Source: Amphiscolops sp. MND2022 (lineage: Eukaryota). Taken from it: a stretch of 64,000 nucleotides of DNA. The notes below the pieces were generated by a model. The model worked only from the letters and a program-made list of their open reading frames with translations. It had not been told where the DNA came from and did not search any database. Positions 1-37,971 of the stretch are shown one piece after another. The DNA is taken from the NCBI GenBank assembly GCA_964187785.1, contig OZ076409.1, forward strand, positions 69,814,001 through 69,878,000. Direction: 5' to 3'. The translations under genes were made by a program, and so were the position numbers. Positions within the stretch are counted from its first letter, which is position 1. Each line of letters starts with the position of its first letter.

Positions 1-195
1 ACCAACATCAAGCGTAGTGAATGTAGAACATCAACCAAACATTGGACATGAGGCTATTCAAGATCCAGTCACCCCGAAGACTAGTAACGCTGATAACTTG
101 AGTCCGGTGCTTACCGAAGAACATACCGCAGTGACCAATGATAGACAGAAACGATTACGAACCCAAACCCAGAAGTATCAAGCAGGATTCGCATG
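1..195 (+). mobile_element. 3' end of an LTR-retrotransposon pol ORF (integrase C-terminal tail), truncated by the window edge
   Basis: Open frame from nt 2 (PTSSVVNVEH...DRQKRLRTQTQKYQAGFA*) ends in a basic R-x-R...Y tail and is followed by a purine run AAAAAAGGGGA (204-214). An LTR-like stretch continues to about 385. Confidence 0.5.
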
Positions 196-567
196 AGGCA
201 ATTAAAAAAGGGGATTCGGTGACGTCATCGTCACTTTCTGTTATTCGGTAAACATCTACCGTTCGTTACCGAAGAAGCTACTTCAATTTCATTGGTTCCG
301 AGGTTCGGTTATATAACACCGAAGAATGGAAACTTTCAATATGCTTTACCGATGACCGGTGAAAGAACTCAAGTAAACTCTTACATAATAGACTTGTATA
401 TTAACTGGTATCAACTATTATTTTGAATATTATTTAACTGTTTTGTACGGACCATAAAGAAATAAAACGAAAACCTGAATTGAACTGAGTTTAAAACAAA
501 ATCTTTTCAAACCACTTTACGACACTATTTGAAAGTTCTCATTTTTCATTTTTTTTTCGAAAATTAT

Positions 568-1322
568 TGTAACGTCCGGCTAGCGGCGCACATCTAGGAA
601 GAGGGACAATGCCTAGGATGCTTAAACAGGAGACCGTTGTCTTACTACATACCTAGACACTAGTTTTTGATCCCAAAATGGTCTCCAAGGGGGACTTTTC
701 TAACGTCTAAGGAGGCTCCTCTAGTTAGAGCTCCGAAGCGACGTGCCGGCACTCTCAAAGTCCGGACACGCCCCACAAGCCTGTAAAAACGTATCCTAAG
801 GTTTCTAGCGCGTTCCTGCTATCTCCTACATACTTCCGAGGTCCAAAAAGGTGTCTAGCTGAAATACATTATATTGGTGAATAAGGACTAAAATGAGGCC
901 CTAGTAGGTCAAACATTATCCAAATACGCTATAAACAGTCAAAGTAGGTGGGGATAGGCCCCAATAAAGTATACAGTTACAGTTCGGTGGCGATCATCGG
1001 CTTCCTGCCTCTGGCATCATTCCTCATCTTCGGGGCACAATGGTCTCATTTGGCACTTTTCTGCCAAAACCCTGTCTTTTTGCTGTCAGATGGCCGAATT
1101 CCTGATTCTCACGCCTTCTGGGTGATGACATCTCGGACATTCTCGTTCCTGGGTGGTGGGTTGGGTCTTTTTTGGGCGTGTTTTTTCTTTTTTTTTGCTT
1201 CCTCTACGGTTCTCGTACCTGCTGGGTCGGCCATCTTGAATGTGCTTGTTTGATGTCGCTTATTTCGAATTTTTGATCGAAATTTTCAAAAACTTCTGCA
1301 ACGCCGACTGCCGGACGTTACA
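568..1322 (-). repeat. 3' LTR (755 bp)
   Basis: TG...CA ends, adjacent to the PPT, near-identical to 5296-6049. Confidence 0.93.
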
Positions 1323-4029
1323 TCCTCCCCGGGCCGTAGTTTGTCGTCCTCGACAAACGAGAGAGGACGTTCACATCTTGGTTGCCACCATCCAGTGATC
1401 CAGTGATACTGTTGCAACATGGTACTTCAGGAATCTAAATGGAAGTCGTTGCCCAAAAACACGTTATTGCCCAAAAACATGAGTTTTTGCCAGCCTAGCA
1501 GGTTTCCTTGGATTCCACACCAACAACGGGTTCTTGCACTGGAAAAATATTAGCAACTTTAGACACTTAGCCTTATTTTCAAAACAAATTCAAACTTTTA
1601 ATTTCGCACCAAGATTTCAAAATTTCTAGCACCTTATTGCATCTGCATAATAAGCACTCATCACAATAGGTTTGGCACTGACCTGGGGTCCGCCTGATAG
1701 GTTAGGTTTTATAACATGCACGATAGCACTTGAAAAGCGAAAAATAAAAGTAACAGCTGTGGTCTTGCAAAGTTCATGGCCAACAGAAACTGCACAATAA
1801 CTAGCACTAATGGTGAAATAGGCCTCAAAAAATCAAAAATATCACAAAAAATGCGGAACTATTCAATCTATTGTGTCAGCAATGTACGCCCAGTTAAAGC
1901 TATTGTCTAGGTAGTACAAGCACCAGTGTATATGCAAGAGATGGAAACAAACTACTTCTCAAGAGGGGACAATGTCACTAACGATGATAGAGCAGAACCA
2001 ATAAAAGTCAAAAATCAGGCATGATAGATCATGAAAACAGTCTTCGGCATTAAAAACAAGTTCCAGAGCAATCATTCGGGTTCTAAAAGCACGGCCGCTG
2101 GCCAAGCAGTTCTCAGAGCTTCGAAGCTCTAGGTGTTTCATCATGCTTGGTGTTGACTTCTCTCGGGAGAGTATGGGTACTCCCCGGGCCAATCTCTTGT
2201 CCGGTGTTTTCACATCGACATGGTTCATGCAACTGTGGTACCGAGTACCGAGGTTCACTTTACGCATGAATCGAGCAACGAACATTGATTTTTTGAGAAG
2301 CCTGCTTGGCTACAGACGTTAGATTGTCTGAAAAGTCGTTTTGTCACTCATGCTGCCCTGTTTCTGGAGAGCATAAGAAAAAACAAAAATGTGATTAGGG
2401 ACTAGGGGTAGACCTTGGGGGTGAGTAGGACAATGGACACTGAGATTGAAGTGCTTTCTTGCCTTACGATCGTAGCACGATCAGAAAAAGCGTTCTTTTT
2501 CGACTATGGTAGTCGCTACTGCACTTGTTGTCCTGTTTTGAGACGCACTGCGTACAAAGTCTAAACTTCTAAAAGTGCCTATAAACGCGCTCCAGCACCC
2601 GTAGGGCCCGTGGGGCACTGAGTATGCGTAATCTCAATGAACAGATTGCACTCAAGTGACTTTGATAGCAGCCGGGAGGCGAATTTCCATTTTCGGTTTT
2701 TCACCTCCATGTCTCATAGATCGGTTTTCTCAGAGACCCGAGATCTTAGGGTCAGCTTAGCACTATTCAAAGTGATTCAAGAAGACGTCCTGAGGGCGCT
2801 CGGTATGCTAATTGGGTCGTCTTGGCCCTCACTGGCATGTACACTGAGAAAAACTATGTGATTTTTTGCAAAAATGCCCAAAATCAACAATTTTTTCGTC
2901 AACATGCACCTCCGGGGAAGGTGAAAATCACTTGTAGCGCTGCTAGCGACTTGAAAATTTCACACCGTCTAATACACTGGTTGAATCGTGAGGAATGAAC
3001 CTCCGATTGCGTCAAAATTGATCCTGTGGGTGTCACGGCCACTTAACAATGTTCACTGTAAAATTGACTATGTCGCGAAATTCACAAAAAGTGGTCAAAC
3101 TCGCCTTCGAGGCGTCCCAGCCACCTGAAATTTTGCCTGCGAGCGTAACTTTTGCCTACGTAACAGAAAAATAGAGCGGCGAGGTGCCTTGATCAACATC
3201 TGGCGATATGAAGTGACAAAACCTTGATGTACCAGAGGTACCGCTTTTTCGGGTCAAAAATCACAAAAATGTCAATTTCTCAGCTTTGGCTAGTAGCCGG
3301 CTGCTCAAATTGCACAAATCGTCGTGATCCAGTGCCGTGTGCACGAAAATGCAAGAATTTTAGTGTTGGGGTACCTGCGAGGTATTGTACCATGCTCAAC
3401 TAAAATTCAATTTTTTCGACATTTTCGGATCATTTTTGAGCAAAACTGCGGCTAAGATTTCTCAATCACTAGTAACAGTAGCGTTACGAAAATTACACCA
3501 CTAACGTAACTTTTTGCGGTCTACACGATGGTGCAATCCGTTTTGGGCTACTCCTGCTAGGAGAGATTTCGACCTTTCTTTGAAACACTATTTCAATGTT
3601 CCGATAATGTCGCAAAAATAGCACGTTTTGGGCTATTTCTCAACAACCACTGGTTGGAATCACTCGCGGTTTTCTGCGTTTGTAACGTTACACTCTATAA
3701 TAACAGAAAATAGGCAAGCGAAACCTGGTAGGTTCCAAATAAGGTCTCTCAAAAAATTCTCATGTTACACCTTTTACATTCTGGGAACAATGTGAAAAAT
3801 ACGTATTTTCCCTAGGAACTTTTTATTTCTCGGTTCCCAGATGTTCGGGATAGTTCTAAACGTAACGTAATAAGGTGTAATAACTTTATTCACGGGACTG
3901 GGATTGTTTCACTTATTAGTTTTGATGTTATAACTCTCAGGTCGATGGGGTCCTCCACTCAGGTCTATGTACAACAATAGAACGTCAAGGGTTAAACTAT
4001 CAATTTATATTGGGGAAGGGTAAAAAACG

Positions 4030-4700
4030 TCTTGGCAGTAGTGTTTTGTACCACCAAGCTCGGGAACAATGTTTTTGGGCAGCTCTGAAAGCTTTGGAAC
4101 AAACGCTCAAGGCTTCGCCCTCACCACATTTTGTCTGTTAGGCCAATTTTGGGTCTTCACAAACAAAAATCGCTAATTTTTTTTGTTTTCAAGTAAATTA
4201 GCGGGTTAAAAAGTTTTGTTCCTAGCCTGATAGGTCTAGTGGAACGTTTTTATTGTATTGCCACTGGCCGTACCCTCTTCTGAAAAATTTTGGCTTTTGT
4301 AACTAATGATGACCAATAAGTAGCTATTGTATGAAAATTAAAATTGGCTGGTAACTTATTCAATATTTCATTGGAGGGCCTCAAAAAACTGCTTGACGAT
4401 AACGTTTTCTAATATCTGGCTCGGGAAAAAGAATTTTAGGTGGCTCGCAATGCTCTGAGAAAAACGAACAGGGCTTCGCCCTCACCATTTTTCGTCTCAA
4501 AGTCCAAAGTTGACGTTTTCAAACAAAAATCGCTAAAGTTTTCGGTGTTTTTGACAATTTAGCTAAACAAATTTTTCTGTTCCTGACCTGATAGGTCTAA
4601 TGGAACGTTTTTATTGTATTCCCATTGGTCCTACTATCTTCTGAAAAATTTCGACTTTTAAAAGTAACCAAATCGAAACTAGAGCTATATAGGGTGTTAT
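4030..4700. repeat. Two diverged ~360-bp tandem units inside the LTR element
   Basis: GGCTTCGCCCTCACCA, AAACAAAAATCGCTA and CCTGATAGGTCTA-TGGAACGTTTTTATTGTATT each recur at an offset of about 360 nt. Confidence 0.8.
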
Positions 4701-5295
4701 GGTTAGCTCGCTATATTTTTTCAGAAAACAATCGGAATACCCAGTGGGTATTTTTCTCAGTTAGTTTATGCAAAAACAGGCCTGGGAATACTAATTTGGG
4801 GCTAGAAAACGTAAAGGGAACGAAATAACCCAGCTGTCTTCGGTGAATCGGCACCAGGTGGGGAGGAAGAGGCTATGACGTGAAGCACCTGTAGTCCTGC
4901 ACTCAGCTAGCTCGGGTCTTCACAAACCGTCCTCGCAGTCCCTGTACATTGCCAATTAGCTGAAAAGAAGCTGGAAAACCCGTTAAAACACGTTCCGGAT
5001 AAGCCGGAATAGCTTTTTTAACAAGTACAGATAAGGTACAAGGGGGTACACCGTCTCAAACTGTCTTTTTCAGGCTTGAGACCTCGGAAACATGCAGGAA
5101 ACGCAGGAAAAACACTAATACAAGGCCCAAAGGGCTAGAATAAAGCAGTAAAAACAATCTAGGACTCTCCCAAAAGCTTCTCCTAGATCCAGACCTTTCA
5201 GGGCCGGAAAGCAGGAGTTGCTCCTCGCAGGACGCGGTAAGGAAAAATATCCTTGAAAAATATCCCTCTGTGGTCGCCATAAAAACTATTCCAGA

Positions 5296-6049
5296 TGTAA
5301 CGTCCGGCTAGCGGCGCACATCTAGGAAGAGGGACAATGCCTAGGATGCTTAAACAGGAGACCGTTGTCTTACTACATACCTAGACACTAGTTTTTGATC
5401 CCAAAATGGTCTCCAAGGGGGACTTTTCTAACGTCTAAGGAGGCTCCTCTAGTTAGAGCTCCGAAGCGACGTGCCGGCACTCTCAAAGTCCGGACACGCC
5501 CCACAAGCCTGTAAAAACGTATCCTAAGGTTTCTAGCGCGTTCCTGCTATCTCCTACATACTTCCGAGGTCCAAAAAGGTGTCTAGCTGAAATACATTAT
5601 ATTGGTGAATAAGGACTAAAATGAGGCCCTAGTAGGTCAAACATTATCCAAATACGCTATAAACAGTCAAAGTAGGTGGGGATAGGCCCCAATAAAGTAT
5701 ACAGTTACAGTTCGGTGGCGATCATCGGCTTCCTGCCTCTGGCATCATTCCTCATCTTCGGGGCACAATGGTCTCATTTGGCACTTTTCTGCCAAAACCC
5801 TGTCTTTTTGCTGTCAGATGGCCGAATTCCTGATTCTCACGCCTTCTGGGTGATGACATCTCGGACATTCTCGTTCCTGGGTGGTGGGTTGGGTCTTTTT
5901 TGGGCGTGTTTTTTCTTTTTTTTGCTTCCTCTACGGTTCTCGTACCTGCCGGGTCGGCCATCTTGAATGTGCTTGTTTGATGTCGCACATTTCGAATTTT
6001 TGATCGAAATTTTCAAAAACTTCTGCAACGCCGACTGCCGGACGTTACA
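5296..6049 (-). repeat. 5' LTR (754 bp)
   Basis: TG...CA ends; PBS lies 16 nt downstream on the minus strand. Confidence 0.93.
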
Positions 6050-9000
6050 TATTTAATGTCTCCAAAGGGTCCCCCTTAATTTTTTTCGATCTTTTGCAAC
6101 AAACTGGATTTTATTAATTATTTAATTGTTTATTGTCTCCAAAGGGTCCCCCTTAATGTTTTTCGATCTTTTGCAACAAACTGGATTTTCAAAAAGCCCA
6201 AAGGTCCTCCTCTTACAATTTTCAAAACTTTAGCTTTTTGAACCTTAGATATAGCGCCGACTTAGACGTTCCCGTCTTGTTTACCTTTGAACCCTAAGTT
6301 CTTCTAATCGGCATTCGAAATACGTTACCATATTAACAGGAATATGGACTTTTTCCCTTGAATTTTCGGTTTTAAAAAGTTTTAATTGCAAACTTTTTTG
6401 ACAAAACAACTTGAAGAATTAGGGCGAAGATAATTTTTATCAAGTTTAGAGTTCTTCTTAAAATGATATATTTCAGCGAAATAAGAAAACTAAGGATTAT
6501 AGTTATTTATATTTATTTTTCTTGAAAACAGATTTATAGAAACTTATTCGTAGACAGGATTCATTTGTAAAAGAAAAGGTAAACTTGCCGAATAAAATGT
6601 TGGTAATTACTTTTCGACATAGCGTGCTCCGAGCTCATACAATACATTCTTCCCGAATTACGAAAACTAAAAAATGAGTGGGCTGTCTCTCATTTTTCTG
6701 CGTCATGAAATTGATGTCAATTAGGAGAAAAAAATGATTTTTTTTTCAATTGCATGTATAATCCCACGAAATGTATGCCTAAATTGATCAGTGTGACGTA
6801 AGAACAATGAAAATTTGACCAAATTAGAAAATCATGTCGTTTCAAGGTCAATCAATCAGCAGAAGTAGTCTGATAAAATCATGCATTTTACGTCATTGGG
6901 TGTTATAACTACATTTGCAACAACCTTGGTGCTTATAAAACTTACAAAACAATAAAAGCAATCTTTTCTCGAATAGAAACACTGATTGCAGCTCACAGTC
7001 GTGAATTGAGAGTTAATCTTGGGCGGGGATATAAATATATTACATTATACTTGCATTTACTCTATCAATTTATTGATAAAAATCAACAACAGACTCTGAT
7101 TTTGATGAATTGCTGTCATCCTCAGCTGTCAAATCATTCCACCGGCTACTTGTAAACCTAATATTTTATTTATATTACAATCATACAGTTTAATGTAGTT
7201 ACAAATTATATTCTTATTAACTTTGGCACAGCATAGTGTACATTTAGCCAACTTCTTCGTAACAACATTTGGGAATTTTTACCTGAATAAAGGCACTATT
7301 AAAAGGCCAGTGGATTTCATGCATTTTGAATTAGTCGCAATATCAGCATGGATGCAACAATCAATTTTCAACAGAATCAGGAAACCAATATCCGCTTCTA
7401 GGTGTACCATTATTGCGACTACTTCTTTATATCTGCATGCACATTGTTGCGACATATGAAAACCCCTTCAAGAATAAGTAATAAGTACTAGCAGAGCGCG
7501 AGGTTGATTTGAAAAAGCTAAAAAAACAGTCGGACCTTGATTCCTTGTATTGGAGTATTAATTGCACAATAGTGGGTGGTCAATCCAATTCGAGACGGAT
7601 ATACTAAGCTACTAAGATAGGGATACTGACTTCATTCCATTTCCTTCTTTTCATTCCTGATTTCGCTCCCAATTCGATGCAAACAAAAGGACAAAAGGTG
7701 ATGGTCTCAATTTAGGATCGTATATTGTTGGCAAAAATTACAAGCATAACACCACTGTAAATTCAGTATATATACTTGTATATTGTTATATTTATATTGC
7801 CAATCTATCCTTCAAATTTGTACTTGTAGGCGGTGCTACTTGCTGTGTGGCATTGCATAACAACTCTCCGTTTCTTCTCCATATTACGTAACACCACTTC
7901 ACCTCCTTTCTTAAATCCTCGTCTTTGTTCTCACGTCTCCTTGGCGCAAAACAACGCAGCCCCTTTTTTGAATTGCCACCACTTAACCCCCCACATAAAC
8001 TTCCTCATTTTCCATATTTTCCCACCCCGTCGAAGGTCCCGTCGCGTTCGCTGCAGTCTTCGCTGCGATGGTGTCTTTCAGTTATATTTTTTAATTCTTT
8101 CCGTTTGAACGCCGTTTCCTAATTCACACCAGGCATCAATATTTGAAACTCTCAAAGTGGAGATTTGAAAAATTTATAAGCTCGGTCCCTTGTCCTGTTT
8201 TATAGATTTAACACGTTTTGTTACTTCATTTCTTGCTTGGAGTTGGAAACTGACAATTCAAATGGTCTTTTTTTAAAATTGCTCAGTCAATTTTGGAGTC
8301 TTTTTGAATTAGGAGGATTGGTAAAAACTCGTTTACGCTGAATCAAAGACAACAAACAATTATTCTAAGAATACGCGAATGAATTATTGACAGAAAAAAA
8401 AACGAAAAAACTACCACAGATTCACAAAAAAAAGAAAATACAAAACAGTTGAGTATTTTTAGCAGCAGTGTTGTTTACAAAAAAACTTCGTAATGAACAA
8501 CTATCAGGCTCGTAAATTGAGATTCATTTGATATAATGCTTGTAAATATGAGTCATGAAATATTTACGCACAATACTTTCAAGCTGAAATTCCAACCCAA
8601 AAAGGCCATTTTTTTTTACTTTATCTCACATTAAAGTGGCCGATGACTATCAAACTTTTTGAACGGAATTCGTTGCCAAATTTTTCAATAATTTGAAACC
8701 TTTCGCAGATATTTTTAACTTCTTCGAATACTTTGAGTGTTTGCTTTAGAAATCTAGCACAGTTTAAGCTCGAAATTTTCTCAAATACGGCGACTTTTCG
8801 TTCGGAGAAACGCCGAAAATCGCATGCTTATATGATTCTTATAAAATTTGCAAAATTCATCGAAAATCTGCCTGGTCCCAGACTTGCTAATAAAATTCAG
8901 ACAAATATGTAGATTTTCTGTGATCAAAGGAAAAGAAAATACAACATTTTTTTCGCCGAATTAGAGACCAATTCCACCAATATGGTACTACGTAGGACAC

Positions 9001-11380: not shown

Positions 11381-13859
11381 ACAGGTGACAAAACAATGCA
11401 CTGATATGAAAGTGCATTCACGGTGGAAACTGTCAGTCATTTCCGTTTTTTGGTATCAATGTTTAGCCAATTCACTTTTCTCAAAGAATTAGTTTTAACT
11501 ATGGCTCCCACTCCTGAAAAGAAGAATCTTGCCAAAAGCAAGAAATGGCCCAATAGCTCGTTGAGAAATTCTATCAGGAAAACGAGGAGATGTCCAAATC
11601 TGAATTCGCAAAGAACTTCAAAAATTGGGCCTGAACCTATTGTATCTTGGCTAACACTCATCAAAAAAGTTTTATGCTTCGGAAGAAACGCAATGACCAC
11701 AAAGCAAAAATCTTGATTCATGCAAAGAAGCAAAAACTCAAAGACTTCTCTGAATATAAGTCATGAGTTTCGCAACGATCTGACATCGAAATTCGTACGT
11801 GAACAGCAGTATTCCTTACGCTAACTTGGTATCACTTACTGTAAGAAAAAGAATGTTCCATTGATAGCAGACCAGTAGTCCCTGGCAAAAACTTAATCTG
11901 TGTCTGCTAAGCTGGGAAAACGTGTTTTCAAGGCGACAGCTCGGGTTCAAAGTGCCATGGATGATGAATCTTATTTCTCAATTCAAATTGACAATGTGCC
12001 AGGCAACGACGGGTTAAAAATATCTGGTGGCTCAAAGACAACCCATAGATGTTATAAACACACTGGGAACCAAAATTTGTTTTAAAATTTTTCGTTTGGA
12101 TGGCCAATTGTCCAAAGGTGTGTTTGATATGGTCTTGAGAGAGAGAGAAGATTATCAACTCAAGTTTTGATCTTGAAAAATTGAAGAACGGTCTTCTTTG
12201 ATTTCGTGGACAAGCCCTTTACAAAGTGCGATCAATTCTGGATTTGGTTTTAAGTTGCAAACGCTTTATGTGGCCAAATATGTTGTAGATTGGTTGAATG
12301 ATCAAACTTTCAATTTCTTGAGAAAGATGAGAACCCGGCTACCAGTGCTCAGTTAACGCCAATCAAAAATAACTGGTGTTTAGTTAAACATGAAGTCTTT
12401 GCATGAGGTTGGAGAGCAATGTGTGTCACAAATTTGATTTATCGCATCAAGTTTAAAGCTCGTACATTGGATGAAAGTGTGAACTAAAAACTTTTCGAAA
12501 ACCTGCCAAACAATTTGGCAGGCTGAAACTAGAGGACTAAATCAATTGATGAAATGAACAAAACTACTCACAAGAATTCAATCTAAGTGTATGCTATTTT
12601 TCATTTTTAATCGGCTCTTCATGAAGTGAAACGCGACTATTATAAAGACTCTTTTTTTTCTATCCACACGAACTGACCAAAATAGTTCTTAAAAATTCTA
12701 CAAAAAATTATTGCACCAAATTGCACTATTCGGCCTAGCGAACTGAATCAAAAAGGTTTTTCCTGTTTTTCCGCGTAACAAACCATACGGGGCGAGACCA
12801 AAGACTCCCCCCTTTCATTTTTTTCGGCACTGCGAGACTTTTTTTTCGAAAAAAAAAATTTCCCCAAAGGGTCCCCCCTGCATTTTTTTGATGTTTTGCG
12901 ACAGAATGGATGTTGAACCAGAGTCGCATATGCGGTAAAGGAGTCGGCTTAAGTCTTTTTCCTTCTGACTCGCTTTCGTTCGAATCGTATGAACAGTTTG
13001 TGAGAAAATCGAAAAAATCGAAAAATGACTGTTTTTTGGCCATTTTTGGGCTAATTTTGGCTATGTTTCTCACATCCCAGCCATACGATTTTGATGCCAC
13101 TGCACATATGGGACTCTAATATGGTGTAGAATAACTGTAGAAAATTTCGTTCGAATCGTATGGACAGTTTTTGAGAAAATCGAAAAAAGTCGAAAAATGG
13201 CTGTTTCTTGGCCATTTTTGGGCTAATTTTGGCTATGTTTTTCACATCCAGGCCATACGATTTTGATGCCTTTGCACACGCAGGGGCCCCTTTGGGTGTA
13301 GAATGACTGTGCAAAATTTCGTGAAAATCGTATGGACAGTTTTTGAGAAATTTGAAATTTTCATGAAAAGGTCGGGAGAAAAAAAAACAAAAAAAACAGC
13401 ACGATTGCATAAGTAGTCGAAAATTTTTTTCCGACTCCTAAAAATCCCAAAGGGTCCCCCCTTTCAGATTTTTTCGGCATTGTGAGATTTTTTCCCGAAG
13501 ATGAAAATTTTTGTTTTTTTTCAATTTTTTCATGTTTTGCGACAGAATGGATGTTGAAAAACCTCAAATTGTCCTCCCTTTCAGTTTTTCGGCATTGTGA
13601 GACTTTAGCGCGCCAGGGGCTCGCGCTAGCGGGCCCCGGCGCGCCACTCGGTCCATTTTTTTGAGTATGTAAGTTTTCGAAAAAAATTTTTCAAAAAATT
13701 TTGATTTTCGAGTACTGTAAAAGAGTACTTGACACTTGGAAGTCTTTTTGCTATTTTTGAGCCTTAGATATGGCGCCGACTTGGGCCGGTCCCGGCTTGT
13801 TTTAGCTTCCGTATTTAAATCTTCAATCAAGTTGCTGCAAAATTTTGTTTGTCACCCGT
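11381..13859 (+). mobile_element. Decayed Tc1/mariner (ITm, DD37E-like) transposon interrupted by a dispersed repeat
   Basis: TA-flanked imperfect TIRs ACAGGTGACAAAACAA / TTGTTTGTCACCCGT. Transposase remnants MDDESYF (~11957) and NPATSAQLTPIKNNW (~12332, a degenerate NP-NSPQLRPIEN-W). Frameshifts and stops throughout. Confidence 0.65.
12610..13801 (-). mobile_element. Copy of an abundant dispersed repeat family (DINE-1/Helentron-like non-autonomous element)
   Basis: Terminal motif ACAAG...AAGTCGGCGCCATATCTAAGGCTCAAAA and internal CGGCA-TG-GAGACT and AAGGGTCCCC units are shared with ~500-567+6050-6282, 20305-20445, 28080-29168, 30240-31320, 37972-38450, 55212-56076 and 57524-58060. The class assignment is inference. 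Confidence 0.6.
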
Positions 13860-14029
13860 TAATTTTATTGAAAGTTTACTAGAGTCTTGTCGTGTCATTG
13901 ACCATGCGTAAGAACGCACGGAATGTCTATGAATTGTGTAATCGTGTTATCAACTCTCGAGAACCTTAAGTTCACCTTAAGTTCAAAGACTTCTTCACAA
14001 TAAGCAAGAACTGAACTGCGCTGATTTCA

Positions 14030-14745
14030 ACCCTAGCCGAGATTGCCTGAACTTTTTACATGCTGCATGGAAACATGCAGGCTAATTTTTTATAAAACAT
14101 GGAAATTCCGGGACCGTGCATGGAAACATTTTGTAGGATTACAATGCAGGCTTCACTATTTGAACTAAAACTGAAAACAATTCCACTTCTTCGCCGCAGC
14201 GATCACTTTGTTTTCACGCGTAAGTTTCTCGAGTAAGTACCTTATGTAATCACCGTTAGTCAAATAGCACGCTGAATATGGAGTTAGTTTGAAACTTATA
14301 AAGTGACTGAAGTTTATTTGCATTGAAACTGCGGTAAATTTAATGAAGTTCTCAGCTGCTTTCAAAATTAGAACGCCGTCCTAATGAAACCTGCAAAACA
14401 TTTTGCGGCGCAGAATTACCGCCAAAATTTAGTATGCATCTCATAGGCAGCTTGATAAAATTAAATTGATTCAGTGAAATTTTGATCCATGGAAGTCTCC
14501 TGAAGTTTATTTGCATTGAAACTGCGGTAAAACTGATTAGGGTCTCGGTTGCTTTTAAAATTAGAACGGCGTCTTCATGAAACCTGCAAAACTTCGCGGC
14601 TCGGAATTGCCGCCAAATTTAGGATGCACCTTATAGACAGCTTGATAAATTCAAATCGAATCAGTGAAGATTCAATGCATGGACATTTTTTTGAGAACTG
14701 TATGAAATCATGGAAAATTAGCTTGGTAACCTACAAAAACATGTA
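14030..14745. repeat. Dispersed repeat, second copy at 47028-47552; this copy has an internal ~190-bp duplication
   Basis: AACCCTAG-CGAGATTGC-TGAACTTTTTACATGCTGCATGG... is collinear at both loci. Confidence 0.85.
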
Positions 14746-14862
14746 AAAAGTTCAAGCAGTTCCAACCAGGGAAGTGAAACTAGCTTTAAGCGTTTTGAAA
14801 TATAAAAATTTCTGAAAACAGTAGTATTTCGATCGACTTCACAACAATGAAATAAACCGGTT

Positions 14863-15947
14863 CTCCTGACTAAGTGTGGTCCTTATTTTATAAGTGTGGT
14901 CTCTGCATATTTTGTCGATTACCAGAAATTTCGTCGTCGGAAATTTCGTCGTCAGAAATTTCGTCGCCAGAAATATCGTCGACGGAAATTTCGTCGTCAG
15001 AAATTTCGTCGTCAGAAATTTCGTCGTCGAAAATTACGCTCTATAAAACGTTGCATTTTGTCTAAGCTATTAGGAATTGTCTAATGGTATTGATGTCTTA
15101 AAATTATCGAGTATTGATAATTATCTAAATAATTATCGGTAATTGTGCAATTATTGCTATTATTGACTTTTAGTAATGGTTTTAACCGAAAAAGTTTCGG
15201 ACCATGTTCCTTATCGCTCCCACCCCAGATACACAATGTTTCTTGTCCCCCCCAACACGAATTTGTTTCGACACTTGAAGCAAAAATTCCCCGGAATTTT
15301 CGACAGTTTTTCGACAAAAAAACGAATACAATGCAAATTTTCTCCGTCATAAATTAAATTGGCTAGTATGGTGTGAATCACCATACACCGGTACAATGGT
15401 TCAGGACTGAAAATATACCATTGCTCAATAAGCGTCTTGATGAATTGATTGAATGCAATTATTTTTTTGACTCAGTTGTGGTGTCAAAATGAAACTTGTT
15501 AAGATCTCTCATTTTAATAATTAAATAATTGAATAATTCAAATAAGCTCTTTTCGCGAACGCTGTTACTTTTTATCAATACGACGAAATTTCCGACGACG
15601 AAATTTCCGACGACGAAATTTCTGACGACGAAATTTCTGTATTTGCTAATACGACGAAATTTCCTGCAACGAAATTTCTGACGACGAAATTTCTGGCGAC
15701 GAAATTTCCGCCTCCCATTTTGTCGGAAGTATTATTATAACGTCGTCAGCTATGTTCACATAACCCTAGTGCCCTAAATGCACGAGCGACGTGCCATATG
15801 GCCATGCCTCAATGTCGCTACTTGGCGAAGAGAGCGAAGCGACCGAGCCATACAACAAATATGCTAACCTCTTCTAGGGACCACGCTTAGTCAGGAGATT
15901 TCGGGCCGGCTGCATAAATTTTGTAAGGACCACACTTAGTCAGGCGT
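14863..15947. mobile_element. Small TIR element (MITE) hosting a foldback insertion
   Basis: CCTGACTAAGTGTGGTCCTTA at the left; inverted copies at 15879-15898 and 15925-15945. Confidence 0.65.
14918..15716. mobile_element. Foldback (Mutator-like) non-autonomous element with 9-bp TSD
   Basis: About 7 tandem 15-mers (AGAAATTTCGTCGTC) on the left and their reverse complements at 15581-15710. TSD ATTTTGTCG at 14909-14917 and 15717-15725. Confidence 0.82.
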
Positions 15948-18900
15948 ACCAATTCAACTTTGCACCTTTTATCTTGATGGAAATTTTTACAACTTTGATT
16001 GAATCTAAATTGAAATTTTTTTCTCCATTGAATGTTCATTTCTCTTTTTCCTCATTTGATGGACGTGTAAATGTGTTCGCAAAACAATTAACAAGTACTA
16101 AGTAAGTGTTAACGGACAGTTAACATCCTCTCAAACCACCGCAGTCATTTTCACATTGCGGTAATTGCTCTGTTCAATCATGATGTGCAATTTTATAAAA
16201 ATTGGGCCAATTTAGATGCTTTTTCCATAGTGTTTTCCCAAAAATCACTTTTCCCATAATTTTTACAAGGTTCCAAATGGTAAAGTTGAACAACCTTTAA
16301 AAGTAATCCTCTTAACTTATGACCAATTAAGTGAGATTACATCTGCATATTTATCACCTGAGGAGGTGGATTATTGGTCCCTTTATTACAGCTTGTAATA
16401 CTAAAAATGACAATAAAAAGACCGGGACGAAGCAATCAATCACCCGACAGAGACTAATAATCTGTATACCCAATAATTAAATTACAGTAACCCCTGTTAA
16501 ATAAAGTGTGTAACTTATATTTGAATTAAATTGGATTGTGCCCGAAGAAAGAAATCAAGAAGTTGATTATAACACCTGCGAGATCTAAATTTGGAAGAAA
16601 AATTGAGAATTAGTTTTCCGGAACCTTTAGAAAACTTATCACAATAGAAAAAATTCCTTTGTTTGCAAAAAATGATTAAATTTTTGTAACAATATGGATG
16701 GTAGTGAAAAATTTTTATATATGTTTTCTTGGTGATTAGTAGATTTAATGATGATATTAGGAAAATGATTTTTTAATCTTGGCTAATGTTAAAACTTGAT
16801 GAAGCGTGAACGTTTTTAAGGCGTTGTTTTGCACCGATGCTGCAAATGTGAACGAACTGCAAATGATGATGAGGACTCGAACCCTCGAGCTTGGATTATT
16901 TTTGAACTAACTAATGGGAAATGCTTTCAGCCGTCCATCTCAAAACCAATTAACGTAAAGTGATTTTTATGGATTGCGCAATTTTCAAAAGTTGCTACTG
17001 GTCCACAGGACTACTGGTACTACAAGTCTACTGCTACACTTAATTGATTGAAATTGGCTCCTTGAATACTTTCAAAACTCGTCATATTTTATGGGAACTT
17101 TCAATATTCCCAGTAACATGAAATGTTTTGTAATTTCAAAGGACTATTTGATCCAGGAACATTGGGATGAATTTTTCCTGAAGATGTTGTTATAAACATA
17201 AAGCAGTAATGCTTTAATACAAGATTTCATCAATACTTTTTTTCCTGAAAATTTCAATTTTCACGGAATGAAGTTTTTTTGAAACAACCTATTTCGGCGA
17301 TAACTGCACGGCAATCTATGCGAATATTAAAGTACAAAATCCCTGGTTGCTTGTAAAAAAAACTTCACCGTGAACAATTGCGACCTTTTTTTAAAATAAA
17401 AAATTGCTTTGAAGCCCCTCACTTCGATTATCGGGGACAGGCAAAAAATGTTCTTTTTAACCGGAAGCTTAAACGGTTTTTCGGAGCTAACAAACCCCGG
17501 GAAAAGGTGCGGTTTCTCAGAGTTTCCCTGTTGCCACCTTATTTATGGAATAGCGAAATAGAAAACTCCTATCGATTTTATTCTTAATTGCAACTTTGTC
17601 GGTTTATGAAAAACTTTGCCAAAATTGCAGTCGTAACATGAATAAATAATGAAAAATATTTACTGAGTTTTCTTCACCTTCTAAAACACTTTATTGGAGC
17701 CAGAAATTTGTCGAAATTTTAGTTGTCAGCATTTTCTTTTGATCTTCCGTGAAAGGCTGTGATTGGTCGGTTTCACATATTGATTAGGTTTCCTAAATAT
17801 CAAAATTCGGCGCCACAAGTCGAATCTCCAAATGACGTCATCACGTTTTTATTCTCATTTAGATCTCAAACTGGTATTGAAAACGTCACATTGGTTGAAA
17901 TTCTATACTAGCGTTTCGATTGTCATTTTGAGTTTAATGAGAAACAAGAAGTGAATGATTCGAAGCTTTATGAAAATTGTCAAGAAGTAGAAATACCCGA
18001 AAAGACTTTCAAAACTCTTAAAAACCATATCCTATTATTTTATGTGTACAATTTGTAAATTTCATTCTGTTCCATTTTCATCAGACGAAAACTTAGATTT
18101 ACAAACTACAGCTTACCCATGAAAATATCAAAATGCGGAAATCTAGTCGGCTGTTTGATAAAACTGTTCTTAAAGAACGCAAAATTGTCCCCATGGCTTT
18201 TGATCAAATTCTTACGCGATAATTGTTCCTCGACTATTGTATCCAGAACAATGCTATCTTATCTCAAGAAATACACCCCGAGGTCATATGCAATTTTGAG
18301 AGTAAGACGCTGATAACCCGCTCGCCGTGGTGCACAGTGGCCACAGTAGGATCGGTAAAAGTTTCGTCAAAACATAGGCAGCCCTGAGAAATTTTGACGC
18401 TGTGAGAACAAATTTACCAACAAAAACAACAGTAGGTTAGTGTTTGTTCCTGAATGAGAAACAAAATTTCCTTTTGAAGGCCTAAAAATGGCAAAATTTG
18501 AAGCATTAGCAAATTTTATTCATACAGTATTATATCTAGTATCATATCCGACTGCGATTATTTTCATCGTACGTTAGCAAAAAGTTTATAAAGTATCATC
18601 GGATAAGCATTAATGTCAGCTAAAACTTTCGACTTACAACAGGTGAGTACATTTTCGAATGCTGAAAAAAAATAGAATCTACAAGGTTTAGAAAAAAAAA
18701 ACAAAAAACTTCTACAAGAAAGCTAGCAATTTGTTGTTGGAGAAAGATTAGAAAACCGCGCACTCTTGGACACTGTGGAACTGAAAAAATAACTTTTTTG
18801 AGAAGTTTTTAATTTTTTGAATTTTTGTTATTTTTACTGTTCTCTGTAGAAATATAAGTCATTCCAGATTCGAAAATCCAATCGTTGTGAATTTTGGAAC

Positions 18901-21231
18901 CATGGGATTAATGAGAACAAGGGTTCCTTGTTTTACAGACGACTTTTTTCTTCTCGATTTATCTGGAATTATGGAATTACTTTTTCTTCATAGGAGTTGT
19001 TTCGAAATTGTAGGCTAAGACAACTTCGAGATCTGTATGTTTAAGATGTCAATTCAGTTCAAGCGAAATTTCGTTATCACAATATGTGTGGTACCTTTTT
19101 ATACGGAGAGCGGAACAATATCTAAGGAAATGTAAAACGGGAATATAATGAGGATACCTAAAATGAGCACGAAGTCTGCGGGAACCATAGAATTTATATC
19201 TATACACGAAAACAATTAAAATATATATTTAGATACCCTAGAACCGATAAATTATGAATATAATGAAACCATAATATTTACTCCTTGAAAAATTAGCAAG
19301 AATACCTCCAAAAACGAAAGTTCGAAACCTATCTGGCGACTTCAGGAAACGCGGTGCCGAAACGCGTCCTTAATGCTACCCGGAACATTAAGGTAACCCA
19401 TATAACAGAACAGAAACAACGGTATAAAAGAGAACATTGATGAAATGATTCATGAATGCGCGCCGATTTCCAATGATAACCACTAGGTGATAATCGAATT
19501 TTTGGAAATTTTTTTTCAAACATGTTCAAGCATACTGTGATCATAGTCACCGACATGCTTTTCATAATATGACCATACTATGATCATGGTATGATTCATC
19601 ATTTCCGAATATGCCGGTCAACTTGGGTTATCAAAAACGACATTATTATAGCTCAGTTTGAGAAAATACAGAAGTTCGACACTAGTTTGATGAGAAACAA
19701 GTCCAGGAGAAAAGTGTTTAAATACGGAGAAAAACCCAAAAAGAGAGAACCTTCCATGCTGAAAAAGGGTTTTAACTGAAAAAAAAACAAAATCACGAAA
19801 ACAAACCCACTTTTGAAATGAAGGGTTTTTCTATCAATATCGAGCCGTCTCAAAATAAACCCAAGGGAGACAATTTAGCTTTATACAGTTTCCTTATTCA
19901 GTTAAAATTCTACAAGTTTTTCTCTTGAAACTCTTGGCAAGATCTTGCAAGATCGCACATATTATTGGCGCTTCTGATAAGAATCTTGCCAAGATTGATT
20001 CCTACCAAGGGTTTCACGAAAATGTATGATTCTTATCAAGAATTTCCAGAGTTTTCTCACTGGGTAGCTAGATTTGATTTCTAGCAAAAAAAAACAACCA
20101 ACGATGTTGGATTCGAATCCAAATCGAGCGCTGAATCCGAATTCTGCTTGTTATTTTTGGATTTTTTACTTTGATGTGTTTGATCAAACAATCCGGCATG
20201 ATCCAAGTTGGCGCTTCATTAGACTATCCTGCTTCTGTCAGAATTTTCTACCTGAGAAAACTTCTTTTCAACAACAATAGAGCAAATTCTACGAGGAAAG
20301 AAACCAAGCCGGGAAAGCCATAAGTCGGCGCCATATCTAAGGCTCAAAAATAGCAAAATGACTTCAAAATATCAAGTGTTCTCTTTTACAGTACCCGAAA
20401 AACCCAAAAGTTGGATCGAATTGGCGCGCTAAGGGGGGGGGGGGCAGAGTGTCTTTGGGCGTATTGTCCGGACACCATTTCCAGGTAAACAATCAAATGG
20501 GATTTTCGTTTTTTTTTCTGTTACTTTGAAGTTTCAAATTTTCATAAATTCTCCATTGTCTGAAAGAACGGAACCGATTTGTTGCTTTTAAAGCTTCTGC
20601 GCACTGATTATTCCGTAAAGTCATTTTGAAAATAAGAAAGATCTTTAAAAAAACAAAAAGAGAGTCTTTTTGCAGTGCTTTTATTAGGTTTGAGCTGCAG
20701 ACAACCGATGAAATCTTCAAAGAACGAGACCAATATTTATCTAATTCAGTCAATTTAGAACTCTTTGAAATCGACATGAAGCGATAGACATGAATTAGAC
20801 TGTTTCATGAACATCAACTGGAAAATTCAATTGCCTTGACTAATCGTCATTATTGAAAGCTTTCAAAAGATATCTTCCGTGCCTTTGAAATTTTTCATAC
20901 CTACTTATTTCAGGAAAAGCTGTTCACTTCTGCCATAAGACGATTCTTGACAGGGGCTAATTAGGCGGGATTTCAATTTTCCACTACGGTGACTTTCAGG
21001 AAACGCGTTAACCTGAAATTTCCTCGTTTTCCACGAAAGTGTAGCTCCGGTTTGAACAAACACAGTTGGTCTTTTTATCTTTGGCTGTATCCTTTCTGGA
21101 TTGACTGACCCTAGCCTGGGAATTTATTTTATCCCGTTTTTTTTACTATTTTCCATTGACACCTCCATTGGTGCGTAAGTGGTTGTCATTGGTAATGGAG
21201 CTCTTCCTTCCTTCACCCCTGTGTGTTACAG

Positions 21232-26518: not shown

Positions 26519-27199
26519 TCAAACTCGATCCAGTGTAAGATGCATATCATGCATACTGTCGTGATTTTGATCATCGTTATATGATTCAATTGAACTATCT
26601 CTAGACCTTTGTCTACAATTCAGTTGGCTTGAGAGTGTTTTAGGGCGCTTTTCCCAAGCTCTCAACACATTTTCAGCTTCGGGGTTCCGGTGTCGCTCAC
26701 TAGACTTTAGGTCCTCAGTGTTAGAATTTACAGTCCTCAAGCTGGGATGTAGCTCATTGGACCCTCGATCCACTACGGTCAAATCTGTTCTCCCCTGCTT
26801 CTCTATCGTATTATGGATAGAAGGAAGTACCTTTTCAGTAATCGCGTTGTTAATTGCATCTTGTATTTGGAAGTTCAGGCTAGTCTTAATTTCATTCAAC
26901 TTTCTTGACATTTGATTTAAAATTTCTTTACTAATCATTCTTGTGGTCTCAATAGCAATATCACTATTTTCTCTACTATTGGTGTTAAGTAAAGACTTGA
27001 AATCTTCCCCTACTAGATTTGAATTTTGTTGGGGTCTACTTGGACCTGAGTCTAAATTCACTTCGTTTTCGCTGCCATCATTTTCATTCTCATCTCTTGA
27101 GTAACTTCCTAACATAATATCTACATTTTCAACATCAGACATCAAGTCCATTTGTCTAGATCGGCGTTCTTTAGCCTTCTGTTTTCTCGTACAAGGCAT
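26519..27199 (-). CDS. LTR-encoded ORF (226 aa, about 214 codons inside the LTR); probable N-terminus of a retrotransposon ORF1/gag
   Basis: ATG lies about 135 nt downstream of the TATA box. The frame stays open through the LTR end. Basic N-terminus and an amphipathic helical segment. Confidence 0.55.
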   Translation of the reverse strand: MPCTRKQKAKERRSRQMDLMSDVENVDIMLGSYSRDENENDGSENEVNLDSGPSRPQQNSNLVGEDFKSLLNTNSRENSDIAIETTRMISKEILNQMSRKLNEIKTSLNFQIQDAINNAITEKVLPSIHNTIEKQGRTDLTVVDRGSNELHPSLRTVNSNTEDLKSSERHRNPEAENVLRAWEKRPKTLSSQLNCRQRSRDSSIESYNDDQNHDSMHDMHLTLDRV

Positions 27200-28076
27200 C
27201 AGAGAATATGTTCATTCAACAATCAATTCACAGTGTAATACAGAGCAAATCAACTTTCACAACGTAAACAATGGTCAACTTGTTTGTATCAAAGTTATAT
27301 TCAAAGTCGATCCCCTGCCTTCTCGTCCCTCCTATTTATAGTTGGACGAGAGGTGAAAGGTATAATTACGCGTGTTATGTAGTTAAATATAGGACACAAT
27401 CATCTAAAAATAGCTCCTTCAGCCTTTTCGTCATAGTGACGTCACTGGTCTAGGTTACATCAAAGGAGGATTAAACAATATGTCTACAAAATCCAACATC
27501 AATGTTCTACAACTAAGTATTTCATTCTCATGTTTCTAACTAAATAGCAACTTTGCATGAAGTGGATCTTTGGTAACATCATCAACATTTTGGTTGAATA
27601 GACATTCAGTCCAATTAGCTATAGCAACGCATTTGAATGGTAGCGTAATGTATGTCACGTGACTGGTTTCCGCTGTGGACTTTAAGTCCACGCGGCGACA
27701 GCAATGTAAGTATAAAAGAAGCACCGTGATTGGTTAATATTCTTTGGACTGAGCGTACATTGAGCAAGAGGAAAAGCACATTTGAACTCGTTTCCTTGTA
27801 TTAATCACTAGTATTGCTTTCTCATTTACATTGATTTCCAAATCAACTCATCACATTGGTAATCAGTCAACATCAATTGACAACACAGGCACAAAATGAA
27901 TAATTAAAACATAATATTAACTAAGTTTGTTTGTACTATCATTAATTTTGTTGTGGCTCAGAGGACTGCAAATCTTTTAAGTTTAGATAGGAAGTACACC
28001 AGGTGGAGGGGGTTAGTGTTATCCCCTTCAATCAGTGTTTGGTAGTAATTACCGTCAGAGGCGGCAGCCTGCGACA
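26557..28076 (-). mobile_element. Solo LTR (1520 bp) with 5-bp TSD
   Basis: TGTCG...CGACA termini; TSD CATAC at 26552-26556 and 28077-28081; minus-strand TATAAATA at about 27333-27340. Confidence 0.8.
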
Positions 28077-31000
28077 CATACCGACGGAATTTTTTTCCTA
28101 AAACCTCTTGTTGCTCAGAATTTTTGAGGAAAGCCGAACAACAAATTTTTTATTTATGCAAAGAGACAATGTTGTGTAAAGTTTATCAAATTTACAGAAC
28201 TGCAAAATTCTTGAAGGAATGCCCATAAGACCCGAGAAGCGCTCTTCCCCAACTTGAAACATCAAAAACTGAATTTTTTAATTTAAAAATTCAATTTTCC
28301 AAAAAAAATTTATCAGGCATAGTGCCGAAACGAAAACGGAGCTTTAAGCACGCCAAATGTCGCAGAGTGTCGAAAAAACCGTTGGTCTTTTCCACAAGTT
28401 TTTAGACAACTCATCGGTTCTCCGGGATCGAAAAACTTTTCGTGTCTCATGGCGCCAAAAATTTTACAGAAAGGACCCTTTGGACTTTTTATCATCCAGT
28501 TTATTGCAAAAAATCAAAATAACCAAAGAGGGGACCTTTGGCGGCACCAAGACATTTTGGAAAAAAATCTCACAATGCTGAAAAAAGCAATAAAACCTTC
28601 TGAGATGTCTAGTAACAACAAAAGCTTTAACCAGACGGGATCGTCTCAAGTCAGCGCCATATCTAAGGTTCAAAATTATTCAAAGAACAACTATTGGAAA
28701 CAATTGGAAAAATTATTTTTTTTTCAAAAAAACAAATTGAATTTTTTTTTTCGAAAAAAAGTATTTTTTAAAAAATCGCACAATGCCGAAAAACTCAAAA
28801 AGAGGCCATTCAGGCTCATTAAACGTTTTTACAAACCGAAAACTTCAAAAAAAATGCAAGGGGTTACCCTTTGAAAGAATCCGAAAATTTTCGAAAAAAA
28901 GTCGCATAGTGCCGAAAAAAAACGAAAAAAATCAAACGAAAGAAAACCTTTGGTCTCGCATCTACTTTTGGAAGCATAAAAATTTTGGGGTTTAGTGCGA
29001 GAATCGAACCCACGATCTCCGGCTTCTCAGAAAATTAGTTGAACAAATGGACAAAGATTGTAAGAAAAGTGGACCATTCAGAGTGAGATTGTAGGCTGAA
29101 AAAGAAAAAAACTACCCACTGTAATAGTCGGGCTTTTTTCCTTGAGGGAAAAGGCACCGACTAAAAACGATGGTAGCCAAAGGCCGTACGCTTTGGATGC
29201 ACCAGAGATTGCTTATTAGTAAGCTAAGAAGGCCTAGAGAATTTCTGTAAAAAGTGGAAATTTCAGCGTGAGTTTTGCTTTCACTTTTCAACATCAGACA
29301 TCAAGTCCATTTGTCTAGATCGGCGTTCTTTAGCCTTCTGTTTTCTCGTAGAAGGCATCAGAGAATATGTTCATTCAACAATCAATTCACAGTGTAATAC
29401 AGAGCAAATCAACTTTCACAACGTAACAATGGTCAACTTGTTTGTATCAAAGTTTTATTCAAAATCGATCCCCTGCCTTCTTGTCCCTCCTATTTATAGT
29501 TGGACGAGAGGTGACAGGCATAATTACGCGTGTCATGTAGTTAAATATAGAACACAATCATCTAAAAATAGCTCCTTCAGCCTTTTCGTCATAGTGACGT
29601 CACTGGTCTAGGTTACATCAAAGGAGGATTAAACAATAGGTCTACAAAATCCAACATCAATGTTCTACAACTAAGTATTTCATTTTCATGTTTCTAACTA
29701 AATAGCAACTTTGCATGAAGTGGATCTTTGGTAACATCATCAACATTTTGGTTGAATAGACATTCAGTCCAATTTGCTATAGCAACGCATTTGAATGGTA
29801 GCGTAATGTATGTCACGTGACTGGTTTTTGCTGTGAACTTTAAGTCCACGCGGCGACAGCAATGTAAGTATAAAAGAAGCACCGTGATTGGTTAATATTC
29901 TTTGGACTGAGCGTACATTGAGCGAGAGGAAAAGCACATTTGAACTCGTTTCCTTGTATTAATTACTAGTATTGCTTTCTCATTTACATTGATTTCCAAA
30001 TCAACTCATCACATTGGTAATCAGTCAACATCAATTGACAACACAGGCACAAAATGAATAATTAAAACATAATATTAACTAAGTTTGTTTGTATTATCAT
30101 TAATTTTGTTGTGGCTCAGAGGACTGCAAATCTTTTAAGTTTAGATAGGAAGTACACCAGGTGGAGGGGGTTAGTGTTATCCCCTTCAATCAGTATTTGG
30201 TAGTAATTACCGTCACAGGCGGCAGCCTGCGACACATACCGACGGAATTTTTTTCCTAAAACTTCTTGTTGCTCAGAATTTTTGAGGAAAGCCGAACAAC
30301 AAATTTTTATTTATGGAAAGAGACAATGTTGTGTAAAGTTTATCAAATTTACAGAGCTGAAAAATTCTTGAAGGAATGCCCATAAGACAAGAGAAGCGCT
30401 CTTCCCCAACTTGAAACATCAAAAACTGAATTTTTAAATTTAAAAATTCAATTTTCCAAAAAAAATTTATCAGGCATAGTGCCGAAACGAAAACGGAGCT
30501 TTAAGCACGCCAAATCTCGCAGAGTGTCGAAAAAACCGTTGGTCTTTTCCACAAGTTTTGAGACAACTCATCGGTTCTCCGGGATCGAAAAACTTTTCGT
30601 GTCTCACGGCGCCAAAAATTTTACAGAAAGGACCCTTTGGACTTTTTATCATCCAGTTTATTGCAAAAAATCAAAATAACCAAAGAGGGGACCTTTGGAG
30701 ACACCAAGACTTTTTGGAAAAAAAATCTCACAATGCTGAAAAAAGCAATAAAACCTTCTGAGATGTCTAGTAACGACGAAAGCTTTAACCAGACGGGATC
30801 GTCTCAAGTCGGCGCCATATCTAAGGTTCAAAAATATTCAAAGAACAACTATTGGAAACAATTGGAAAAATTATTTTTTTCAAAAAAAATAAATTGAAAA
30901 TTTTTTTCGAAAAAAAGTATTTTTTAGAAAGTCGCACAATGCCGAAAAACTCAAAAAGAGGCCATTCAGGCTCATTAAACGTTTTTACAAACCGAAAACT

Positions 31001-31433
31001 TCAAAAAAAATGCAAGGGGTTACCCTTTGAAAGAATCCGAAAATTTTCGAAAAAAAGTCGCATAGTGCCGAAAAAAAAACGAAAAAAATCAAACGAAAGA
31101 AAACCTTTGGTCTCGCATCTACTTTTGGAAGCATAAAAATTTTGTGGTTTAGTGCGAGAATCGAACCCATGATCTCCGGCTTCTCAGAAAATTAGTTGAA
31201 CAAATGAACAAAGATTGTAAGAAAAGTGGACCATTCAGAGTGAGATTGTAGGCTGAAAAAGAAAAAAAACTACCCACTGTAATAGTCTTCCCACTTAAGG
31301 GAAAAGGCACCGACTAAAAACGATGGTAGCCAAAGGCCGTAGCCTTTGGATGCACCAGAGATTGCTTATTAGTAAGCTAAGAAGGCCTAGAGAAATTCTG
31401 TAAAAAGTGGAAGTTTCAGCGTGAGTTTTGCTT
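27126..31433. repeat. Tandem duplication, unit about 2.16 kb (27126-29284 / 29285-31433)
   Basis: Collinear sequence at offset ~2159 with scattered substitutions. The unit is part of the solo LTR plus its TSD and the flanking dispersed repeat. Confidence 0.93.
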
Positions 31434-31642
31434 CCAGTGAAAAAGGTCACTGTAAGAGTCGCTCAATTTTTTGCACAAACAGTGCTTACTAAAAATGAGG
31501 AAATCTAATACCCGACCGTAAAGCAAGCGTCATTAACTTAATACTCACATTAATTACTTCTTCGTTTGCAGTCATGAAAACTGGGAATGTTAAACCCAGA
31601 ACCTCACTTATCGGCTATTTCCCCGCAATTGATGCTTGTAGA

Positions 31643-37655: not shown

Positions 37656-37971
37656 AGGAAAAACTCAGTCAGTAAAAAATGATATTACCAAAAACATCCT
37701 TTTCTCTTGTAGAATTAAACTGTCGTCATTTGAATAATGTTTAGCAGACAAAAAGATTCTTTCTGAATTTTTTAATGTTTGGTTGCCGTCTCGAAATCAG
37801 GAACACCTTATCATCTTTATTTTGGTTAATTTCTTATGACATTGCACGTGTTTTGATTTTCTGAAGTTTTTCATCATAATCAGTTATTTATTTAATTGTG
37901 GCTTCTTGCCAACAACCACAATTGACGCTGTCTGAACTTATTAACTGCTGGAAACATTTTCCCAAGGATTG

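Follow-up and report, generated by a model that had tools for sequence, protein, structure and literature searches.

We analysed a 64,000-nucleotide stretch of the genome of Amphiscolops sp. MND2022 (assembly GCA_964187785.1, contig OZ076409.1, positions 69,814,001 to 69,878,000 of the forward strand; hereafter the window, in whose numbering all coordinates are given). A preliminary description of this DNA had noted two elements with long terminal repeats (LTRs) that are flanked by duplications of their target site (TSDs) 3 bp in length, and had assigned them to a Troyka-type lineage. The first element, which we call E1, extends from 568 to 6049 (5.5 kb) between TAT repeats, and the second, E2, from 33247 to 34933 between AGT repeats. 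Both pairs of flanking repeats are present as claimed.

As expected of an LTR retrotransposon, E1 has an LTR with TG...CA ends on either side, the two being in direct orientation. We found that the two LTRs are 99.5% identical, with 3 substitutions and 1 indel (one base in a T run), in agreement with the young age given to them before. Each starts with TGTAAC, ends with GTTACA and carries 13-bp terminal inverted repeats (TIRs). Read on the minus strand, an orientation taken from the primer site and the purine tract, the 5′ LTR (5296-6049, 754 bp) is followed by a 16-nt spacer (5280-5295), an 18-nt primer-binding-site-like sequence that is the complement of a tRNA-like 3′ end with CCA (5262-5279), a non-coding internal region (1331-5261), an 8-nt purine tract abutting the 3′ LTR that is likely the polypurine tract (1323-1330), and the 3′ LTR itself (568-1322, 755 bp). 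In a diverged relative, a short called open reading frame (ORF), P0236, stops at this junction of purine tract and LTR. The internal region holds a 290-bp direct repeat (4022-4306 and 4383-4667, 74%). Outside the LTRs, the TAT repeats are read in the sequence at 565-567 and 6050-6052 on the plus strand, the right-hand one being followed by the remainder of an interrupted host repeat. A composite DNA transposon made of two 755-bp MITEs (miniature transposable elements with inverted repeats) was rejected for E1, because the LTRs' own flanks, TAT/TCC and AGA/TAT, form no repeat.

E2 had been taken for another element with two LTRs; instead, it consists of a single LTR, a primer site and an inverted 487-bp copy of the outer end of that LTR. 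The complete LTR (34161-34933, minus strand, 773 bp), with TG...CA ends and 13-bp TIRs, is a distant homologue of the E1 LTR. The primer-binding-site-like 18-mer (34128-34145, minus strand), identical to that of E1, lies 15 nt off the LTR, and beyond it a 394-nt leader (33734-34127, minus strand) is cut off by the inverted arm (33247-33733, plus strand), a copy of the U3-side end of the LTR. The two arms differ at 7 of 487 positions, which exceeds the difference between the LTRs of E1. Both ends of E2 stop exactly at the LTR terminus, next to the AGT repeats at 33244-33246 and 34934-34936 (plus strand). The inverted ends of E2, as well as the 15-16-nt distance between primer site and LTR in both elements, had escaped the preliminary description. 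An inverted duplication of the E2 flank was rejected, because the flanks are not reverse complements of each other. About 200 bp from E2 we also noted a truncated Gypsy-type remnant (35138-37684, minus strand) with the end of a reverse transcriptase, an RNase H and an integrase zinc finger, interrupted by frameshifts and stops.

Next we consider the flanking repeats. With the boundaries set at TG...CA, TAT/TAT and AGT/AGT are the only matches at both elements when repeat lengths (k) of 2 to 8 are tested, and the 4-6-bp TSD typical of Gypsy, BEL and Copia is lacking at the intact ends (no match for k = 4-8). At random host positions a 3-bp match was obtained in 0.022 of 400,000 draws, so that the chance of such a match at both sites is 4.9e-4, or 5.3e-4 if any equal length from 3 to 6 is allowed. 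A homopolymer slip of the assembly at both junctions was rejected in view of an intact 5.4-kb frame nearby. We conclude that the 3-bp repeats are real sequence features that are unlikely to be due to chance.

Furthermore, E1 lies inside a host repeat that has other copies in the window, which allows the interrupted site to be compared with its empty counterparts. When 3 bases are taken out of the junction, two anchor motifs stand 14 nt apart, and among 9 intact copies in the window the spacer between these motifs measures 14 nt in 6, 12 nt in 2 and 16 nt in 1. The copies were located by two patterns that found 8 each, 7 of them in common. Four of the six 14-nt copies form two pairs that belong to a tandem duplication, which leaves the 14-nt spacer in 4 of 7 independent copies. 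Ungapped identity to the host copies peaks at k = 3 for 5 of 8, at k = 4 for 1 and at k = 5 for 2. Accordingly, the spacing of the host repeat at E1 fits a net gain of 3 bp. The earlier statement that the host sequence rejoins across both insertions thus holds for E1, while the E2 flank has no second copy within the 64-kb window. Separately, a tandem duplication of about 2157 bp, with units 89-99% alike, occupies 27126-31436.

The LTRs of E1 and E2 align end to end and colinearly, with 387 of 783 columns identical (49%). This alignment score was equalled by none of 200 simulated sequences and none of 68 host control stretches, and the same was found with the termini trimmed. Judged by these alignments, E1 and E2 are two deeply split families of one lineage. 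The preliminary description was therefore right to distinguish two LTR families, and its claim of two independent sightings stands for the insertions and falls for the lineages. The same 18-mer, which starts with TGG, is found on the minus strand of both elements, 16 nt past the CA of the LTR in E1 and 15 nt past it in E2. Its first 16 bases are the complement of the 3′ ends of two phage tRNA genes (tRNA-Arg in L026 and tRNA-Trp in L020); a motif shared by two such genes resembles a tRNA 3′ end and therefore looks like a primer-binding site. The primer might be an arginine tRNA, and we detected no tRNA within the window. The leader folds no better than shuffled sequences (z -1.25).

In line with the preliminary description, E1 appears devoid of coding capacity. 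The six frames of 568-5295, with stops written as X, match no retroelement Pfam family, and 219 Gypsy-type proteins compared with E1 gave 0 matches, leaving no gag or pol remnant in these searches. With 1 of the 6 frames as query, phmmer found 45 short called ORFs, 45-228 aa long and 33-80% identical, none of which passes a Pfam cut-off. After 15 cluster members had been added, matches in two or more frames of the window were obtained for 21 of the 60 ORFs (those within the internal repeat being counted as well), and the 60 jointly tile most of the internal region of E1. All 10 that we looked up come from ENA contigs, and one of the clusters comprises 17 members. These ORFs are spurious, having been called on a family that is large, diverse and non-coding, and E1 is a young, gene-less LTR retroelement of that family. 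Similarly, the sequencing run X1, the one run that a search of sequencing runs returned and one of low share, searched with positions 1-5290, gave 27 contigs at a depth of about 2-5 that touch 24 of 30 bins; 15 of the 27 are less than 90% alike, there are no joints, and of the 29 loose ends the 6 listed all lie away from the LTR ends.

The autonomous partner, or helper, which the preliminary description had placed outside the window, is indeed absent from it, and no long protein emerged from the phmmer search or from a search for longer proteins. The latter, a weak search seeded with an 83-aa frame at the primer site, gave 0 of 907 candidates. Neither Pfam on 11 short frames nor a look-up in the ESM Atlas (best 0.76) produced a helper. 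A scan with the primer-site pattern found 16 metagenome and 20 viral loci, none of them homologous to the window beyond the motif and none with a reverse transcriptase match to P0001.

Long non-coding LTR elements are known as LARDs and have been described in plants. E1, whose long internal region holds no retroelement protein remnants, is by its layout a LARD-type element under this general definition. It shares with LARDs (name as used in PMC10741241) the long LTRs, the primer site, the purine tract, about 4 kb of non-coding internal DNA and many diverged subfamilies, but differs in its 3-bp repeat and its primer offset of 15-16 nt. Small LTR elements of the TRIMp3 type (Helenus, Ajax and Cassandra; below 1 kb, with tRNA- or 5S-derived sequence in the LTR; PMC10886601) were rejected, as E1 measures 5.5 kb and contains no tRNA, and no Rfam match came near the gathering score.

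The Troyka group, to which the elements had been assigned, is described with CG...CG ends (CGCCA...TGGCG), 3-bp TSDs, LTRs of 100-400 bp and a reverse transcriptase branch of its own (Kojima 2025, PMC12440569), and corresponds to the Kuafuorterviruses (PMC11673190). The same source no longer treats Troyka as a Gypsy group, contrary to the gypsy-like standing given to it in the preliminary description, and attributes TSDs of 4-6 bp to other LTR elements. E1 and E2 resemble Troyka in their 3-bp repeats (subject to a shifted 4-bp parse considered below), in the existence of non-autonomous members and, for E1, in an internal length within the Troyka range of 1.5-7.7 kb. However, all 603 Troyka LTRs tabulated there begin with C, whereas E1, E2 and a relative at 56601 have TGTAAC...GTTACA termini, and the LTRs measured here are 755, 754, 773 and 753 bp long. 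Having the repeat length without the ends or the LTR length, E1 and E2 share a Troyka-like cut geometry and are not members of the group, so the Troyka-type label is not upheld. The protein hallmarks of Troyka, namely its clade of reverse transcriptase, RNase H and integrase, a CX2CX8-10HX4C knuckle and the lack of a GPF/Y motif, find no counterpart to be compared in E1, where Pfam frames, the 219 Gypsy-type proteins and the phmmer ORFs revealed no protein remnant that links it to any LTR group. No data on TSDs or primers appear in the main texts of the papers on Odin and Kuafuorter, and that of PMC12440569 does not describe Troyka primer sites.

With Gypsy, BEL and Copia, the two elements share TG...CA ends, short terminal inverted repeats, a tRNA-type primer site and a purine tract at the 3′ LTR, but not the 4-6-bp TSDs, since the repeats here are 3 bp long. 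In Drosophila, Gypsy families are reported with 4-bp and Pao with 5-bp TSDs, off-mode lengths making up 1.8% of predicted TSDs, mostly by +/-1 bp, and a single 3-bp site is recorded for the Copia family Dm88 (PMC3276498). Primer sites lie 0-5 nt off the LTR in LTRdigest runs, a range that may reflect the limit of the tool itself (PMC2790888); the 15-16 nt of E1 and E2 are far outside it. E2 alone also recalls Ginger DNA transposons through its TGT...ACA inverted ends, Ginger being credited with a Gypsy-type integrase chemistry; Ginger1 and Ginger2 have TIRs of about 40-300 bp, TSDs of 4-5 bp and Gypsy-like TGTNR ends (PMC2836005), whereas E2 has 487-bp arms, a 3-bp repeat, an LTR and a primer site, and falls outside that definition. 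Elsewhere in the window, 6.7 kb at 13716-20390 lie between inverted repeats of the form TGT...ACA, flanked by the 4-bp repeat GTAC, and could be a Ginger-like DNA element; nested in this segment, near 14875-15934, is another element with inverted repeats, which contains tandem units of 15 bp. The open-licence literature, a body without Repbase Reports and most subscription journals, yielded no TG...CA LTR element with 3-bp TSDs and no inverted LTRs, which is weak evidence of novelty.

Other elements in the window provide a reference. An intact Gypsy-type element (40267-46182, plus strand) has identical 194-bp LTRs, a 5-bp repeat GAGGT, a primer site directly at the LTR and an unbroken frame of 1811 aa that encodes protease, reverse transcriptase, RNase H and integrase, with a long insert between the last two. 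Its close relatives (86-89%) are found in ENA contigs, in clusters of up to 215 members. The clean junctions and intact frame indicate that the assembly renders ordinary junctions well, and the different primer site and cut make this element an unlikely helper of E1 and E2. A solo-LTR-like relative of the E2 LTR lies at 56601-57353 (minus strand, 753 bp, 72% over 631 columns). It is old and its own terminal repeat has decayed; it has the TGTAAC...GTTACA ends between flanks TAC and AAA, without duplication, which speaks against a 3-bp rule. It sits in its own kind: at 56514-58500 a decayed E2-family LTR is interrupted by this relative and then by a host repeat. A scan of the window for other TG...CA elements gave mostly noise among the matches listed. 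Further along we noted an assembly gap of 200 N at 58948-59147, away from E1 and E2, and a near-perfect palindrome with 109-nt arms and no spacer at 61623-61840, between opposed decayed Gypsy-type remnants at 59152-61428 (minus strand) and 62604-63978 (plus strand).

Our preferred explanation, to which we give a probability of roughly one half (0.52), is that E1 and E2 represent a TG...CA lineage of their own, characterized by a 3-bp cut and by a long overhang on the primer side and mobilized by a helper outside Troyka, and that E2 is a faulty product of reverse transcription. In its favour are the 3-bp repeats at the intact ends of both young insertions, the host spacing at E1, the clean junctions of the Gypsy-type element, and the LTR homology, 18-mer and primer offset that E1 and E2 have in common. 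Under this explanation, the E1 RNA would be read on the minus strand and packaged by the putative helper, and a tRNA would prime 16 nt outside the LTR, so that the linear DNA would extend well beyond the CA on that side. The additional 15-16 bases on the primer side are absent at the host junction and must therefore be cut away; the helper integrase would trim them, unlike retroviral-type integrases, which trim 2 nt and join at the CA end (PMC5408687), and strand transfer 3 bp apart would then leave the 3-bp flanking repeat. For E2, plus-strand synthesis may have stalled 394 nt past the primer site, jumped onto plus-strand strong-stop DNA and copied back to the LTR start. The resulting molecule would have two U3-type TG...CA ends and could have been inserted in one step by the same integrase. 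Dead-end plus-strand strong-stop DNA accumulates in Ty3 particles (PMC5371799), providing a precedent for the template that E2 needs. E2 is likely a reverse-transcription error that was still integrated.

Several observations weigh against this explanation. It is drawn from two sites only, other spacer lengths occur in 3 of the 9 host copies, and once the primer site is left out, the two leaders show only weak similarity (10 of 200 simulations score as high). On the plus strand of both LTRs, TATAAA followed by AATAAA (930-968 in E1, 34399-34422 in E2) runs counter to the orientation that the primer site and the purine tract indicate; the pairs occupy non-homologous places, have no equivalent in the relative at 56601-57353 and could be either an antisense promoter or chance. 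As no helper was found, the non-Troyka identity is argued from the ends alone. Finally, the preliminary statement that no 4-6-bp duplication fits holds at the intact TG...CA ends and fails when the left boundary is moved in by one base, which turns the flanks into exact 4-bp repeats, TATT/TATT at E1 and AGTT/AGTT at E2. The true duplication may then be 4 bp and each element may lack one base at one of its ends, which would make this a Gypsy-like 4-bp lineage with one lopsided end. Both parses predict the same empty site, so that the host spacing does not separate them; 4 bp is also the Gypsy norm in Drosophila (PMC3276498), and the nested relative at 56601-57353, which has no 3-6-bp repeat, aligns marginally best at a net gain of 4 (score 242, against 240 for 3). 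However, this parse depends on the T that follows the right-hand repeat in both places, which has a chance of about 0.1 (T makes up 32% of host DNA), and on joining at C rather than at the CA end used by retroviral-type integrases (PMC5408687). The short end would moreover be U5-type in E1 and U3-type in E2, and as the two ends of E2 share one sequence, one rule would not give both. We consider this reading unlikely, although it is the most credible of the alternatives.

Slightly behind it comes a helper related to Troyka, from a lineage that would be stem or sister to that group and would have retained or regained its TG...CA ends, the 3-bp cut then being shared by descent. No LTR group other than Troyka has been described with 3-bp TSDs; many Troyka members are non-autonomous, and the ends are relaxed in some lineages, one of which has a TAACG 3′ end (PMC12440569), but the uniform initial C and short length of its tabulated LTRs contrast with TGTAAC and 754-773 bp here, and E1 retains no protein remnant that would tie it to any group. 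Less probable still is an ordinary lineage with 4-6-bp duplications, in which E1 would have arisen by a rare off-mode insertion and E2 by a deletion that fused two copies in opposed orientation, AGT/AGT being chance. The off-mode lengths and the Dm88 site recorded in Drosophila, the 7 differences between the E2 arms and the lack of a duplication at 56601-57353 would all suit such an account. Yet it needs an off-mode event together with a chance match of 0.022, both ends of E2 stop exactly at the LTR terminus, and off-mode lengths of 1.8% in Drosophila (PMC3276498) make two of two from a 4-bp family unlikely. Last, and quite improbable, E2 may belong to a self-propagating inverted-repeat family, MITE- or Ginger-like, that arose from the LTR and whose movement as DNA would depend on either the helper integrase or a Ginger transposase. 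Long inverted ends starting with TGT inside a direct flank repeat recall the TGTNR ends of Ginger (PMC2836005), and the long primer-side overhang implies an enzyme able to cut inside DNA; against this, the TIRs and TSDs of Ginger have other lengths, E2 retains both a full LTR and its primer site, neither of the two further relatives in the window is inverted, both being LTR-type, and a second copy of the layout was not seen.

More tentatively than the explanation we prefer, the window may record a second group of LTR retrotransposons with a 3-bp cut, characterized by TG...CA ends, long LTRs and a 15-16-nt primer offset. Its integrase would cut deep, like a DNA transposase, and would hence also insert fold-back molecules with two identical ends such as E2. 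Such a group could be a bridge between LTR and Ginger-like elements, and its 3-bp cut may have originated independently or in a sister of Troyka with ancestral ends.

The lineage of E1 and E2 is a good lead, obtained from two sites and with the helper protein not found. If the 4-bp or the chance reading holds, it amounts to a non-autonomous family of the ordinary kind, one copy of which is oddly rearranged. Among LTR retrotransposons, 3-bp duplications are treated as unique to CG-ended elements in PMC12440569; if the lineage is what we propose, TG...CA elements with a 3-bp cut would uncouple the ends from the stagger and offer a natural comparison for the determinants of integrase stagger. The long primer-side overhang would likewise imply a processing of ends unlike the 2-base trim of retroviral integrases, and annotation tools that accept only TSDs of 4-6 bp and primer sites no more than a few bases from the LTR would miss the whole family.

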